From the IMG/VR virus record IMGVR_UViG_3300010354_000060, positions 18,540-82,539 of that record: 64,000 bases of DNA, one strand, 5' to 3'. How positions within the stretch are numbered: the stretch's first letter is position 1; the number at the start of each line of letters is the position of its first letter. Shown here in pieces: positions 18,395 to 25,431 of this stretch. Position numbers and translations under genes: made by a program. The DNA is from a virus. Under the pieces are notes generated by a model. It ran no database searches. It was given only the letters and a program-made list of their open reading frames with translations, and was not told the DNA's origin.

Positions 18395-21178
18395 CTACTG
18401 ACTCATACTAATGGATTCGTAAGGATCAGAAAATCCTCCAGATCCTCCACCACCAAAAGAATCTCCCATTGGAATTGGAATTGGTTGGACAATTGTATTT
18501 TGGCCAGAATCTTCAACCTCAACTTCTTGAGTTGCTCCAAATTCATACCCAGCATAAGTTGAGAGGATTTGCATTAAACTCTGAGCAGCACTTCTTCTCT
18601 GTGAGATATTCTCAGTATCGTTGAGAATATCCATAAATCTTCTGCCGAAAAGATCAACAGAGTCTTTATCAATTACATATTCTCCTGGGTGAGTAGTAAT
18701 ATTCCCACCTCTACCAACAAAACCACCACCAAAATATGCTACGTGAACATGATCACTGTGTCCAGGATCTCCTGCCTTTAAAAGTTCAACAGGTCTTACT
18801 CCTTTCATTCTATTGAAATCGGAAATTACTTTAAGAATTGGTCCTTGTTCCCAAGAATATGCACCAATATCAATTGCTCTTCCCTCATAATGGAATGATT
18901 TATTTGCGTGGGTTCCTTTTACACCACCAAATTCTGGGTGTTCTTTAACTGCTAAAAACTGCTCAGGAGTCTTTAATCTTTGATATATAAATCTTCCAAG
19001 TTCTCCAGCAATTTTACTTCCTGCAGAACCATATCCCTTTCCAAGTTGAGAAGATCCACCACCTCCAGGAGTGAATGTTCCTTTTTCACCTCTTTGAAGT
19101 GCTGCCAGAATTCTTGCAGATTGTTTCCAACGATCACCTTCTATTCCCCATCCAATATACTTATATGATGCTCTCTTAAGTTGTTCTTCAGTAGACTTTG
19201 GATCCAGGAATTCGTCAAGAAGCCCATACTGCTTCAATTCTTCTTTGATCCATTTAACCTGCTCAGCGTTGCTTGCCTTTTCAAGTGGTTTACCTAAGAA
19301 TTTCTCTGCATTTGTAATTCTTGTACGGTTCCAACTAATAAGTCCTTTGTTAGTTCCTGCGCCATCATTTAAAACCCAAGGAGTTCTTTGACCTTTCCAT
19401 GCAGATTCTGCTTGAACATTTCCAGCAAGAATAGCAGCAGCAAGCATTGGGAATCCTGCTGCCATAAACAATCTTGCACCGCCGACAGCATCAGATGCGT
19501 CACCACCCAAATCTTCTCCAGGAACCATTGGTTGTTGACCAGGGGTTTTTTCTCTTTCTATAGTATATTCCTTCAACCCCAATTGTTTCATCAACTCATT
19601 AATACTTTCATCAATTTTAGCAGAAGAACTTTCTTCAACAGATTTAGAAATTACTTTTGTTAGATCTTCTCCACCCATAAACATAGCAGAGTCAACACTG
19701 CCACCAGAAGCAAAGGCACCACCAGTTCTCATGACATCTGAACTAAATGTTCTCTGCATCCATGCACTTAATGTTGATCCAATGTTGTCATAATCAACAG
19801 TTGATGGTTTTTCTCCAAGCAGAACTTTAGTTGCTATTGCAAAGAATGGTCCAAAGAATGGAATCTCTGATGTTGCATCATGAGATTTTTCCATATATTT
19901 CAATGGACTCATTGTTTGATCGTCTTTTTGTTCTGGGAAAATTTTCTTAATTACTTTTTCTCCACCAACATCAGCACCTGGTTTTACTTTTGTTGGTTTT
20001 GCTGTAACTCTTCTTACTGCTTTGGATTTCTTTACAGTTCTTCTAACTCCACCAGTTAATCTTCCACCTCTAGTTGCTGGACCACCAGTTGCCATTTTAG
20101 CAGATGCTCCAGCAAAGGCATCATACAGTGCTCCACCAGCCCAATCTCCCATCCAACCACCAAGAGCAGATCCAATCACACCACCTAGAAAGGTCCCTGC
20201 AAAGGGAACTACGCTGCCGATAGCACCAGCAACAAGACCACCTAACGCACCTCCAGCGGTGGCACCCGCTGCTCTTGCCGCTGCCCTTCCTGGGTCTTCT
20301 CCAAGCAGTATATTGATTCCAAAGTCAATCAGTCCACCAATAATAGGTATCTTCTGCAATACTTTAGAGAGAGTTCTGGTAACTCCTTGTGCTGCCATTC
20401 CACCTGCTTTACCAGCAATTGATATTCCTAAACGAGTTCCTGCTCTACCAACTCCTCTACCTAAAATTCCAGCAGCACCTTTTTTAGCACCCTCTCCTAT
20501 CAAGGTCTTCCATAATCCTCTGGACTTCAAAATAATCATTGAGAGGATCAAAGCACCATTTACAAAAGTTGCAAATGCACCTGTAAATTTATCAAATAGT
20601 TCTAAAGTCCTATCACCACCAACATTTTTAATAAATCCACGAACAGAATCTACAGCCTTATATCCCCAATCAATAAAAGTCACTAAGGCATTGAATAATG
20701 CTCCACTTATATTCACAATAAAATCAAATGCTGGTGCTATGATTTTTACAAATCCAATAAGTTTTGGAAGTAGAGGTATTAATCTATAGACAACATACCC
20801 AAGAAGAATATTGAATATAAAACTTTTGATCCTATCAAGAAATCCAATCTTAGGTGCTTTTATTAATCCACTTTTCTCTTTCTTCTCATCTGGTTTTTCT
20901 TCTAACTTTTCTTCTCTCTCTTTAAATTTTTTCTTCTCTTTTTGCTTTCTTAAATTTTCAAGTTCTTTTTTCTGAAGTAGAGTTGAATCCTTTAACAGAT
21001 CACTAACATTAATTAATTTTTCTTTAATAGTAAATAGACTACTTGTGGATATGGTAATAGATCCACCATTACCTGTAGATAAAGATTCTGGTTTGATCTT
21101 ATCCGCAGAAGATCCCCCACCAAGAAGTTTAACTGGGTTTATCTTTTTAGATCCTGGAAGTAGTGCTTTAGGTGCCAT
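18395..21178 (-). CDS. Tail-associated lysin: phage tail lysozyme domain + M15/LAS-like Zn peptidase on a tape-measure-like scaffold
   Basis: AAILAGNVQAES..GLISWN..R (phage tail lysozyme-like) and SFHYEGRAID...HSDHVHV (H-x6-D...H-x-H); hydrophobic Gly-rich N-terminal half. Confidence 0.7.
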   Translation of the reverse strand: MAPKALLPGSKKINPVKLLGGGSSADKIKPESLSTGNGGSITISTSSLFTIKEKLINVSDLLKDSTLLQKKELENLRKQKEKKKFKEREEKLEEKPDEKKEKSGLIKAPKIGFLDRIKSFIFNILLGYVVYRLIPLLPKLIGFVKIIAPAFDFIVNISGALFNALVTFIDWGYKAVDSVRGFIKNVGGDRTLELFDKFTGAFATFVNGALILSMIILKSRGLWKTLIGEGAKKGAAGILGRGVGRAGTRLGISIAGKAGGMAAQGVTRTLSKVLQKIPIIGGLIDFGINILLGEDPGRAAARAAGATAGGALGGLVAGAIGSVVPFAGTFLGGVIGSALGGWMGDWAGGALYDAFAGASAKMATGGPATRGGRLTGGVRRTVKKSKAVRRVTAKPTKVKPGADVGGEKVIKKIFPEQKDDQTMSPLKYMEKSHDATSEIPFFGPFFAIATKVLLGEKPSTVDYDNIGSTLSAWMQRTFSSDVMRTGGAFASGGSVDSAMFMGGEDLTKVISKSVEESSSAKIDESINELMKQLGLKEYTIEREKTPGQQPMVPGEDLGGDASDAVGGARLFMAAGFPMLAAAILAGNVQAESAWKGQRTPWVLNDGAGTNKGLISWNRTRITNAEKFLGKPLEKASNAEQVKWIKEELKQYGLLDEFLDPKSTEEQLKRASYKYIGWGIEGDRWKQSARILAALQRGEKGTFTPGGGGSSQLGKGYGSAGSKIAGELGRFIYQRLKTPEQFLAVKEHPEFGGVKGTHANKSFHYEGRAIDIGAYSWEQGPILKVISDFNRMKGVRPVELLKAGDPGHSDHVHVAYFGGGFVGRGGNITTHPGEYVIDKDSVDLFGRRFMDILNDTENISQRRSAAQSLMQILSTYAGYEFGATQEVEVEDSGQNTIVQPIPIPMGDSFGGGGSGGFSDPYESISMSQ

Positions 21179-21184
21179 ATCTTA

Positions 21185-23671
21185 TTAGAAAATCCCCAAA
21201 ATCTTTGCTGTTCTTGGTCTATCCGATGCCTTACAAGTTGCACCAAATCTTGGAACTTTAGTTCCAGATCTCTTATTAATTCCACCAGAACCAGTTCCAA
21301 TTGTATTTGCTTTTGTTCTTACAACTACTTTTGGTTTTGCTGGTGGTGTTGGTGCCTTTAGTTTTGGTTTGGTTTTTGCCAACTGCACTTGAGTTCTTCC
21401 ACTTGTTGGAGTTGGTGATTGCTTACTGAGAACCTGTTTTCCAGTGTTATCAACTTGACCTACAACTCTCCCACCTCTATCTCTAATCAAATTCTTATCT
21501 TTAGTTCTTTTATCCTTATAAGATAGATCATTCTTTGCTTGAGAAAGATTTAGATTTAATTTCTTGAATTGTTTAGAAATTTCATTATCTGACATTCCAC
21601 TTGCTCTATAATATTGAAGAGAATTCATAGCAGCCGTTCTCATCTTCTCTTTATTTGAGGCATCTTCACGACTCTTAGCACCACTTGGATTAAAGAAATC
21701 TCCAATGTTCTCTAAGAAACCTTTACTTCTTTGCTCAGGTCTCTTATAGAATGGTTTGCCCCTATAGAAAGAAAGATGCCCGACAAATGGTTTTCCATCT
21801 GATCCAGTCATAACCTGAGTTTTTGGTAAACCTCTCTTATCAATCTTATTCAGTCCACCACCACCCATCAATCCACCACCAGCTCCCATATAAGATTTGT
21901 TTGTAGCACCAAATCTGTCAGTCTGACTTGCTAATCCTTTAGCATAATTGGATGTGTAGATTACATCTCCACCTCTTACTTGTCCAAAGTATCTCATTCC
22001 ACCAATGGTAATCTCTGGTTCCCATCCAGTTTTTGCTGCACCAGGAACAACTACAGATTGTCTTCCTTTGTAAGTGGCACCAAATCCTTTTCCAATCTTA
22101 GTGCCAAATGAGGAACCTTTAATATTAATACCCTTTCCAGAAGACAGTGCTCTTTGTGCTTGGATCTGTCTTTCAATTCTCTTAAATCTTTCTTCAAAAT
22201 AATCTTTTCTAAAATCACTTGATCCAGACATTGATGAAGGTTTCACGTCTTTAGTTGGATCTGGTCTTCCTAATCCATAAGACTCTTTTTCTTTCTCAAT
22301 AGTTTTTGGTTCTTTACCAATTAAACCACCACCATAAGCATGTGGAATTCCTTTGGCAATTTTGGGGCGATTGGTTCCACCACCAGCAGCATTCATTGCC
22401 TCAAGAGTATCTACGCCATACTTCTGTACAGCACCACGAGACATGACAAATTCACCATCAGAAAGCATGGCAGGAATTTTATCAACTCCTTTCTCACCAC
22501 TTACAAATCCTTGGATTTGACCTGCTAAATCACCGCCTTTACTGCCTGCTACCGCACCTAATATAGATCCAAGTGGTCCAAGAGCAGACCCCGCAGCAGC
22601 ACCTATTGCAGACGCCAATGCTTTATTTTTGAGTAGTCCTTCTTTTAATCCACCAAGAAGTCTTGCAAGTCCACCACCCGCAAACTTCTGAGTTGGTTGT
22701 GGTGGTTCTTTCTTTGCTTCTTCTGGAGCATCTTCTTGTTGTGGTGTTACTTTAGCAGCGTCATCTTTCTTTTTGTCTGCTAATGTTGCGGCACCACCAA
22801 GTAATCCACCACCAATAATTGCTCCAAGTGCTACTGGATTTCTACTTACTAATGCAGCAATTCCTCTTAGTAGAATGCCAGTAATGTTTGCAACAAATCC
22901 ACCAAGTCCTGTTCCAAAAATTAAAAATGCACCAATAAGAGCAGGCCACCAGTCACCTAAGAATCTAATAATACTTCTTACTTTTTGTTGATTATCTTTA
23001 TCACCAAACCACCCTATTAACTTATAGACCATTCTTCCCATCAGAAGAATTACAAAGAAGTCTATAATTTTTTGAAGAAGATTCTTGACTGGAGCAAGCA
23101 TCTTCTCAGCAACCTTCTGAGCAAACCCAAATTTCTTTTCAAGACCTGCTTCTAATCCAGCCCTTGCTTCACCCTCTTTATTTTTTCTATCTTGTTCTGT
23201 CTTCTTTCTTAAGAGATCATTTTGTAACGAGAGACTGTCAAGAATGTTTGAAAGAATTCCAGAGATTTCTTCCAGGGGATTTGATTCTGCTGCTGGTGGA
23301 AGTGCAAGTGGTTTGATTCCACCCAAAAGTTTTTGGGTATTTAATTTTATTCCAGCAGCAGATCCTTTCTTAAAATTCTCTGCAGATATTTTTTTCTTCT
23401 TTACTTTAAATCTTCCCTTCTTTCCTTTGACTCTTTTCCACTCGTCAGTTAGAAGTTCGGTTTCTGCTGTGGGAATTTTAGACTTTGCCATTCTGGCAGC
23501 AGCCATTCTCTCTCTTAAAAGAGAAGCATACGTATCATAATCAATGTCAAAAATATCCTCAAGTCCTAATAACCTGAGGATTCTTTCATCTATTTTTTCG
23601 TTGACGAGATCAGTCCCTATTTTCCCAGTGTAGGGAACCAATGCATTGGTTTTAGAAGAACTGACCGCCAT
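21185..23671 (-). CDS. Tape-measure-like tail protein
   Basis: Coiled-coil region, hydrophobic Gly/Ala segments, GVDKIPAMLSDGEFVM..AV..YG..L.AMN motif typical of tape measure C-terminal regions; very basic C-terminus. Confidence 0.55.
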   Translation of the reverse strand: MAVSSSKTNALVPYTGKIGTDLVNEKIDERILRLLGLEDIFDIDYDTYASLLRERMAAARMAKSKIPTAETELLTDEWKRVKGKKGRFKVKKKKISAENFKKGSAAGIKLNTQKLLGGIKPLALPPAAESNPLEEISGILSNILDSLSLQNDLLRKKTEQDRKNKEGEARAGLEAGLEKKFGFAQKVAEKMLAPVKNLLQKIIDFFVILLMGRMVYKLIGWFGDKDNQQKVRSIIRFLGDWWPALIGAFLIFGTGLGGFVANITGILLRGIAALVSRNPVALGAIIGGGLLGGAATLADKKKDDAAKVTPQQEDAPEEAKKEPPQPTQKFAGGGLARLLGGLKEGLLKNKALASAIGAAAGSALGPLGSILGAVAGSKGGDLAGQIQGFVSGEKGVDKIPAMLSDGEFVMSRGAVQKYGVDTLEAMNAAGGGTNRPKIAKGIPHAYGGGLIGKEPKTIEKEKESYGLGRPDPTKDVKPSSMSGSSDFRKDYFEERFKRIERQIQAQRALSSGKGINIKGSSFGTKIGKGFGATYKGRQSVVVPGAAKTGWEPEITIGGMRYFGQVRGGDVIYTSNYAKGLASQTDRFGATNKSYMGAGGGLMGGGGLNKIDKRGLPKTQVMTGSDGKPFVGHLSFYRGKPFYKRPEQRSKGFLENIGDFFNPSGAKSREDASNKEKMRTAAMNSLQYYRASGMSDNEISKQFKKLNLNLSQAKNDLSYKDKRTKDKNLIRDRGGRVVGQVDNTGKQVLSKQSPTPTSGRTQVQLAKTKPKLKAPTPPAKPKVVVRTKANTIGTGSGGINKRSGTKVPRFGATCKASDRPRTAKILGIF

Positions 23672-23831
23672 TTGCTTGCTGCTGTTTTAATTTTTCTTCT
23701 TCAAGATGCTCTTTCAGCAACTCAACATATACGTCTCTTTCCCACGGAATCATATTTTCAATCTCCGTTAATGAGTATTTATGGTACTGCATTAAGGCAA
23801 AATTCAAACGAAAGTAGTTCTCAAGGTCCAT
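23652..23831 (-). CDS. gp51: Baseplate hub assembly catalyst gp51 (59 aa; possibly also a frameshift extension of gp26)
   Basis: Not in the ORF track: MDLENYFRLNFALMQYHKYSLTEIENMIPWERDVYVELLKEHLEEEKLKQQQANGGQFF; MIPWER motif. Confidence 0.85.
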   Translation of the reverse strand: MDLENYFRLNFALMQYHKYSLTEIENMIPWERDVYVELLKEHLEEEKLKQQQANGGQFF

Positions 23832-23842
23832 GTGGACCAGGG

Positions 23843-24562
23843 CTATGCGAAAAAAGACGCTAACCCTTCCAGAACCACTTCACTTTCTACGTTAGTTTTT
23901 GGATTCTTTACTGTAATTTTGTGCGAAAGTTTTGGCATCGTCTCAAAGAATGTCTCAATTTCTTTGAATTGTGATGAATTCATTTGCTCCAGGAATTCAA
24001 GAAGTTCCTTTTTGCTTACATCAGCTGCTGCCCAAACTTCATCTTCTGTATAAATCTTATCAATACAAGACGCAATCAAATCAAATGATTGGTCCATAGC
24101 ATTGTCACTCTTAAAGTCAAAATTTGCTTTAATGAATTGATCCAATGATGGATACTTCATCTCCATCATGATTGAACTATCTACTTTGATCTTGTTTGTA
24201 TGCTCTTCGTTCCTTTGAACTTTAATATCATCCAAATCAATTTGGACTGATGTTGGAGTTTCTTCATCATCGGGACAAATGATATTAACTTCAATTTCTT
24301 CACCAACAGACTTGCCACGAATATTAAGGAACAAATATTCAATATCAAAAGTCGGCAGTGATTCTACTTTGATATTTTTTGTAAGAATACAGTTCTTAAT
24401 TACTGTCTTAATCGCATTAGAAATTTGCTTTGTATCTTCGCTTTCTAAAGCAATAACCAATACTTTTTCCTCTCTTACAAGGAAGGGTCTATACTTAACA
24501 GTCTCTCCAGTTGAGGGCAACTCAAGTTCATATGACGGTGTAGATATCTTTGGTAATGGCAT
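23843..24562 (-). CDS. gp26: Baseplate hub subunit gp26
   Basis: MPLPKI..YELELPSTG..YRPFLVREEK..FDIEYLFLNIRGKSVGE..LEGLASFF. Confidence 0.9.
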   Translation of the reverse strand: MPLPKISTPSYELELPSTGETVKYRPFLVREEKVLVIALESEDTKQISNAIKTVIKNCILTKNIKVESLPTFDIEYLFLNIRGKSVGEEIEVNIICPDDEETPTSVQIDLDDIKVQRNEEHTNKIKVDSSIMMEMKYPSLDQFIKANFDFKSDNAMDQSFDLIASCIDKIYTEDEVWAAADVSKKELLEFLEQMNSSQFKEIETFFETMPKLSHKITVKNPKTNVESEVVLEGLASFFA

Positions 24563-24606: not shown

Positions 24607-25431
24607 TTAGAATAGTTTTAAACCCGAAGAATATGCAGTTTTGATATCTATTGCATTTCCAGATGCACCTGCAGCAGTAAATGGAACTCCACCTGTTGTT
24701 GTATAATTTCCAAAATTTAACCCGAGATCAGTCGTATATGCTTTGTTAATTTGTGCCTGAGTTAAAGGATTTACATTACTGAAATTATTGGTAGTAGTAT
24801 TACTCTTAGCTGCTTCTCCTCCACTACCTTGAGGTTCAACATAATATCTTAAATAAGTAAGAGAAACTGAGCATTTCAATAAAGAAGACGAATCATATGA
24901 TATTGGAATAGATGCTACAGAAATTGGGAATGGATCTACAAATACATATTGTAATTCTGACTTATAATCTCGTTCAAATTTTGTAATTTTTAAAGGAGAC
25001 CCTACATATTCTGAATGATATCGCATTGAATATGTGTAAACTGAACTTTTAACACTATTACCACCATTTTCGGATATTTGCTCATTAGATGCAAATTTCA
25101 TCCAAGTTTCAAAAAATCTAATGGGAAGATAATTATCAGCATCAACATAAAATGTTAGATCAATTCTATCATCAAATACTCTCCTGTGAACATGCCTTTC
25201 AGTTACACCATGAAAATCATTATTAATTTCCATGGTTGCTAAACTTGATCCAGGTAAAGAAGCCTCAGAACAAGATAAATGAAGTCTAATTTGATCAAAA
25301 CTTAGATTATAATCACGAAAATCTCTCCATGCACCACTTAGCGGTTGTCCAATAAAAACATCATAATGAGATGTTAAAGCTGGGCGTAAAAGATTTGCTT
25401 TTATGTTTGATATACCCTGTGGCGTAGGCAT
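24607..25431 (-). CDS. Tail tube-like / baseplate-tube junction protein (gp54-like)
   Basis: CSEASLPGSSL..LTFYVD..FFETW..FP.S...SY..LLKCSVS..Y..Y tail tube fold motifs. Confidence 0.6.
   Translation of the reverse strand: MPTPQGISNIKANLLRPALTSHYDVFIGQPLSGAWRDFRDYNLSFDQIRLHLSCSEASLPGSSLATMEINNDFHGVTERHVHRRVFDDRIDLTFYVDADNYLPIRFFETWMKFASNEQISENGGNSVKSSVYTYSMRYHSEYVGSPLKITKFERDYKSELQYVFVDPFPISVASIPISYDSSSLLKCSVSLTYLRYYVEPQGSGGEAAKSNTTTNNFSNVNPLTQAQINKAYTTDLGLNFGNYTTTGGVPFTAAGASGNAIDIKTAYSSGLKLF

Follow-up and report, generated by a model that had tools for sequence, protein, structure and literature searches.

A candidate −1 ribosomal frameshift joining gp26 to a gp51-type domain in a T4-like viral genome fragment

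In a stretch of 64,000 nucleotides (nt) of DNA from an uncultured T4-like cyanophage (IMG/VR record IMGVR_UViG_3300010354_000060, positions 18,540 to 82,539), referred to here as the window, the gene for gp26, a relative of the T4 proteins gp26 and gp51, carries a slippery heptamer, T TTT TTC, just before its stop and runs in the −1 frame into an open reading frame (ORF) that had been taken as a separate gene, gp51. All coordinates are those of the whole window, and all features of the site lie on the minus strand. The favoured reading, which is given a probability of about 0.72 on the basis of sequence comparison, is that gp26 is a tail assembly chaperone (TAC) and that a −1 ribosomal frameshift of the type known from lambda G/GT, occurring on T TTT TTC, would yield forms of 239 and 303 amino acids (aa). 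Most ribosomes would stop at the TAG codon to release the 239-aa short form, and a minority would slip back by one base with two tRNA-Phe on the UUU UUC of U UUU UUC and read CGC AUA GCC onward into the 303-aa long form. The extra 65 residues would constitute the domain carried by T4 at the C-terminus of gp51, and a small hairpin 10 nt downstream probably assists by making the ribosome pause. In bacteria, U_UU.U_UU.C is well established as a −1 motif (PMC4066793). The sequences show the anatomy of the site, its conservation and the homologies of its parts; slippage by the ribosome, its frequency and a role as chaperone are inferred. The programmed −1 shift fusing gp26 to gp51 that the initial annotation had proposed is favoured because the heptamer and its phase are conserved, T4 gp51 shows the corresponding architecture, the heptamer has been lost in two-gene lineages, which serve as a control, and the fold is chaperone-like.

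The gene for gp26 (23843..24562, minus strand; short chaperone form or TAC-N, zero frame, 239 aa) has a 3' end that reads TCT TTT TTC GCA TAG, with the TAG stop at 23845-23843, within the wider minus-strand context CTG GAA GGG TTA GCG TCT TTT TTC GCA TAG CCC TGG TCC ACA TGG ACC. The heptamer, recognized from sequence and conservation, occupies 23849..23855 in the gp26 frame, in the X XXY YYZ phase and one codon ahead of TAG. From the heptamer, the −1 frame reads FFRIALVHMDLENYF and remains open to the gp51 stop at 23652, giving a −1 segment of 65 codons (23652..23849) that is the putative C-terminal domain of the long form, or TAC-NC. The predicted fusion accordingly measures 238 + 65 = 303 aa, the unshifted gp26 being 239 aa long; the predicted junction of the long form is ..LEGLASFF-RIALVHMDLENYF.., and the junction peptide expected from the fusion in this window is ..LEGLASFFR / IALVHMDLENYFR (..SFFRIALVH..). 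The 'gp51' ORF itself, with its annotation-style ATG start, comprises 59 codons within the −1 segment (23652-23831). Its ATG (23831-23829) is held within a small hairpin, GGTCC-ACAT-GGACC (23825..23838), which lies 10 nt 3' of the heptamer, and no purine-rich Shine-Dalgarno (SD) sequence stands ahead of that ATG. An SD-like GGAAGGG is found at 23864..23870, 8 nt 5' of the heptamer. When the sequence was re-read, the initial annotation proved right in all coordinates of the heptamer, stop, −1 frame, GGAAGGG and hairpin, as well as in describing an open −1 frame into gp51, a fusion of about 303 aa, and a gp51 AUG enclosed in the hairpin without an SD.

The signal formed by the heptamer and its phase is, judged by its conservation, not a product of chance. 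As a chance estimate, T TTT TTY occurs in frame three times in the 18,833 codons of the 39 window ORFs, and 3 of the 25 Phe-Phe pairs in these ORFs are written in this way, the four possible codon pairs being used about equally. A close set of 80 IMG/VR loci, with gp26 80-88% identical to that of the window, shares the window arrangement throughout, and the two Phe codons are invariant in it (TTT 80/80, TTC 80/80), whereas the conserved residues flanking Phe-Phe each use 2-6 synonymous codons. The preceding codon, TCT in 47 loci, AGT in 32 and AAT in one, always ends in T, even across the Ser codon families. Overall, 81 of 81 close relatives retain the heptamer with the gp51 domain in the −1 frame. 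The same features extend to distant isolate lineages with a single gene, namely S-PRM1, P-SSM2, P-HM1, Melnitz, Syn19, S-RIM2, S-CRM01, Sinorhizobium phiN3, Vibrio KVP40, Aeromonas PX29, Cronobacter LPCS28 and Stenotrophomonas Mendera, which span phages of cyanobacteria, Methylophilales, Sinorhizobium, Vibrio, Aeromonas, Cronobacter and Stenotrophomonas; all 12 keep NNT TTT TTY 0-2 codons before the stop, with a gp51-like ORF in the −1 frame. The spacing between the stop and the annotated ATG ranges in these lineages from an overlap to 50 nt, and in Syn19, S-RIM2 and Melnitz the conserved domain starts 5' of any ATG.

A second survey of IMG/VR gave 127 loci with both domains, every one of which has the −1 phase and an in-frame T TTT TTY; a query with KVP40 returned 2 loci only. 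In six loci (L164, L190, L209, L210, L212 and L224), the zero-frame stop lies 8-9 codons past the heptamer, so that the short form gains a small tail, ..FFVSASPTNP*, which indicates that the junction tracks the heptamer and not the stop. The alignment of gp26 3' ends that had been suggested as a check turned out in favour of the proposal, with T TTT TTY, the −1 phase and an open linker kept in the close, distant and second-survey sets, and with no synonymous loss of the T run in the close set, where neighbouring synonymous sites vary freely. The −1 phase by itself was rejected as evidence in lineages with a TAATG overlap, because such an overlap fixes the phase.

A related arrangement is present in the Ackermannviridae-like Vibrio phages VAP7, D495 and 1.255.O (L094-L096), where a PF12322 gene is followed by a −1 ORF with a gp51-type domain, the slip motif is shortened to T TTT or T TTC, and the two frames meet in a TAATG overlap. 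The arrangement thus extends beyond T4-like phages. These tetramers are the next most shift-prone in E. coli (PMC4066793).

Comparison with T4, whose gp26 and gp51 are hub assembly chaperones (PMC3004832), shows what the fused product would correspond to, T4 gene 26 encoding the short member of the pair and gene 51 the long one. T4 gp51 (249 aa) combines PF12322 (E=4e-52) and the phrog_634 domain in one ORF, and T4 gp26 (208 aa) consists of PF12322 alone. When the fusions predicted for 16 lineages are aligned with T4 gp51, which is uninterrupted, the alignment continues across the junction, and the −1 segment of the window falls on T4 gp51 residues about 200-249. T4 has two PF12322 genes, and P-SSM2, Syn19, KVP40 and phiN3 have one each. 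The slippery heptamer is found in none of 8 two-gene lineages, in which the homologous gp26 site reads TTC TTT, TTT GTT, TTC CTT or TTT ATT, or is absent; its loss there indicates that the T run persists only in lineages lacking a separate gene for the long form.

The identities of the two reading frames agree with this picture. The gp26 of the window matches PF12322 (T4_baseplate) with E=2.9e-76 and 256 bits against a gathering cut-off of 24.5, as well as phrog_150 with E=1e-80, and it is the one PF12322 gene in the 82.5-kb IMG/VR record. The −1 ORF matches phrog_634, 'baseplate hub assembly catalyst', with E=1e-30 to 1.2e-29, and additionally the last 40 positions of phrog_150, the family profile of gp26 itself. 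Close homologues carry a precomputed PF28602 match over the gp51-type domain, a family that appears to have been added to Pfam recently.

For the fold, a database ORF that is already fused (P0006, 301 aa), the C-terminal part of which is 80% identical to the −1 ORF of the window, was modelled with AlphaFold, giving a mean predicted local distance difference test score (pLDDT) of 88.6. Against 48,161 chains, the best match of the model was 2ob9, the HK97 tail assembly chaperone (Z 7.8, 85 residues aligned), followed by 3fgx (7.7) and 3klu (7.2), with the next match at 5.1; 2ob9, 3fgx and 3klu are the solved tail assembly chaperones (PMC9603447). The matches cover residues 1-95 only, and Z is moderate. 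A Foldseek search of the model against the PDB and a profile search of PDB sequences gave no matches, and NCBIfam held nothing relevant. The modelled structure supports a fold like that of tail assembly chaperones for the N-terminal domain.

Several fused ORFs were encountered in the databases. In public assemblies, P0005, P0006, P0011 and P0007 each occur as a single-copy fusion of 299-357 aa (299-302 aa for P0005, P0006 and P0011), with exactly the junction, ..SFF-R.., that the −1 shift would give; errors of assembly in the homopolymer or genuine T7 alleles could explain them. In P0042 (292 aa, 5 contigs), PF12322 and the gp51-type domain stand in frame without a T run (..FSFIDFFFNHL..), and this may be an independent natural fusion.

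The two candidate stimulators are the weaker parts of the picture. The hairpin, which the initial annotation had placed downstream of the heptamer, is present and covaries, as seen from its pairing in 65 distinct sequences of the window clade: 93.8% of cells in the 5-bp stem are paired, 13 cells show double-sided changes, a number reached by none of 500 shuffles, and three of the five pairs covary. It is nevertheless small and energetically weak (consensus −2 kcal/mol), and the covariation is modest. Unrelated and stronger stems start 5-8 nt after the heptamer in P-SSM2 (−15.6 kcal/mol, z −5.5), S-PRM1, P-HM1 and S-CRM01, and in several lineages no significant downstream structure was found. 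The SD-like GGAAGGG, a candidate stimulator, does stand 8 nt upstream. It provides the codons of the conserved Glu-Gly in the LEGL motif (Glu/Arg-Gly across lineages), and similar G-rich codons are equally present in T4-type two-gene gp26 genes without a slip site, so that the element cannot be separated from coding constraint and was rejected as independent evidence.

Several observations weigh against a −1 ribosomal frameshift. The window hairpin has only 5 bp and a weak energy, and lies 10 nt from the heptamer as compared with 5-8 nt elsewhere; Z scores of 7-8 fall within the range flagged by the tool as possibly generic; and a run of six T is formally compatible with slippage by RNA polymerase. 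Additionally, the ATG within the hairpin, lacking an SD, is kept in 81 of 81 members of the window clade, and stop-start overlaps, TAATG or TGATG, occur in KVP40, S-CRM01, phiN3, Mendera and Vibrio phages. The kept ATG and these overlaps make some independent reinitiation possible.

Among the alternatives, transcriptional slippage, in which RNA polymerase would add one U within the T6 run in some transcripts and so generate the identical 303-aa fusion, is considered unlikely. The site is homopolymeric, the run having six T in the window and seven or eight in Melnitz, phiN3 and 13 IMG/VR loci, and the protein would be indistinguishable from the product of frameshifting; moreover, U7 is avoided in genes, possibly owing to slippage (PMC4066793). 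However, about 90% of loci keep six T followed by C, although a synonymous TTT would lengthen the run, and the Ackermannviridae-like relatives hold the −1 arrangement with only 4-5 T. Bacterial RNA polymerase slips efficiently only on runs of about 8-9. In other lineages, the stable hairpins that lie 5-8 nt downstream likewise suit a ribosomal signal. The title of a 2022 study of these genes by Vladimirov et al. includes the phrase 'mechanism other than translational frameshifting', but two papers that cite it (PMC12846349, PMC10885494) summarize its result as separate genes in T4 and, in other phages, −1 frameshift signals of poly-T. No indel was present in the T run among assembled contigs from public runs, in which a minority of slipped transcripts would not be visible; a metatranscriptome contig from a relative crosses the junction (23722-23883) without an indel.

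Reinitiation could also act in addition to the frameshift, so that the window clade would make three products: gp26, the fusion, and a free 59-aa C-domain modulating the contacts between chaperone and tube. Ribosomes ending at TAG would unfold the hairpin in which the strictly conserved AUG is masked and reinitiate to produce the free domain. This extension is regarded as quite improbable. That reinitiation should replace recoding altogether, with a free-standing 59-aa gp51 for which the ribosome that stops at the end of gp26 opens the hairpin and restarts at the ATG 11 nt further on, and with a T run that merely encodes a conserved Phe-Phe, is very improbable: the retained ATG and the stop-start overlaps speak for it, and the end of T4 gp26, ..EFFELL, indicates that Phe-Phe is partly a feature of the protein, but it leaves unexplained the invariant TTT TTC with a T-ending preceding codon (12% expected from window codon usage) and the absence of the heptamer from precisely those lineages that have a separate long gene, and it conflicts with the start of the domain before any ATG in Syn19, S-RIM2 and Melnitz and with the continuity of the homology to T4 gp51 across the junction.

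Directly 5' of gp26 lies a tail-tube-like gene (24607..25431, minus strand; PF23849, E=1.9e-13; phrog_45, E=2e-31), and directly 3' a tape-measure-like gene encoding 828 aa (21185..23671, minus strand), assigned from several weak PHROG tape-measure matches together with phrog_35029. The resulting order of tube-like gene, gp26, −1 ORF and tape-measure-like gene fits the lambda G/GT type. The first 20 nt of the tape-measure-like gene are shared with the end of the −1 ORF (23652-23671), which suggests that the tape measure is translationally coupled to the chaperone reading frames. Within 18395-23671 on the minus strand, the 828-aa tape-measure-like gene is followed by one for a 927-aa protein with a weak tail-lysozyme domain, and as both proteins match phrog_35029 near their N-termini, related N-terminal modules are suggested.

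The −1 frameshift proposed here would explain where T4-like phages that have only one gene 26 get their equivalent of T4 gp51, and would align the whole T4-like group with the rule, general among long-tailed phages, of a tail assembly chaperone in a short and a long form. Its practical value lies in annotation. Joined coding sequences are given in none of the 15 one-gene isolate records examined, in which the −1 ORF is a separate 'baseplate hub assembly catalyst' or hypothetical gene, is started from an internal ATG, so that the domain is cut short, or is omitted. The contrast between one-gene and two-gene lineages, furthermore, offers a natural control for experiments. As to novelty, baseplate or cyanophage cases are not mentioned in PMC5009743, PMC10885494 and PMC3711429, which are reviews or tools on frameshifting. 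The initial annotation had stated that the phenomenon was not known to be described, a statement that appears not to hold, since the same gene family and the poly-T −1 idea are credited to the 2022 paper (Vladimirov, Gautam, Davidson, Virology 2022;566:9-15) in PMC12846349, where it is cited for −1 slippery sequences of poly-T type within the TAC-N genes of T4-like phages, and in PMC10885494, where it is cited for some T4-like phages carrying a short gene and a long fused gene. As far as these citations go, a description of the frameshift in T4-like phages appears to date from 2022, and the finding to be already known.

Among known systems, E. coli dnaX, with its SD, A AAA AAG and hairpin, shares the tripartite layout on which the initial annotation had modelled the site, but differs in that the SD-like element of the window is inseparable from coding constraint and the window hairpin is much smaller. 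Systems of the lambda G/GT type produce two proteins at a fixed ratio, of which the short one binds the tape measure and the long one recruits the tube protein, and the lambda heptamer is G GGA AAG. Similar to lambda, the window has its gene between those for the tube and the tape measure, and the N-terminal fold resembles the solved chaperones; in contrast, no sequence similarity can be detected, U UUU UUC stands in place of G GGA AAG, and gp26 has roughly double the length of a typical TAC-N protein. Conservation of the −1 frameshift in genes for tail assembly chaperones, including lambda G/GT, is credited to Levin 1993 and Xu, Hendrix, Duda 2004. In Vandenendeviridae and Andersonviridae (PMC12846349), the 3' end of TAC-N likewise carries a poly-T slip site, for a GTTTTT frameshift, and annotations mostly treat the −1 ORF as a separate hypothetical gene; these belong to a different phage family from the window, and the likeness concerns the layout of the slip site. 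T4 itself shares PF12322 with the window, and the C-terminal domain of its gp51 is homologous to the −1 ORF, but it has two divergently transcribed paralogous genes with TTC TTT and no slippery site, whereas the window has one gene and a −1 ORF. With the T4-like phages of Vladimirov et al. 2022, as represented in the citing papers, the window shares both its gene family and the idea described here.

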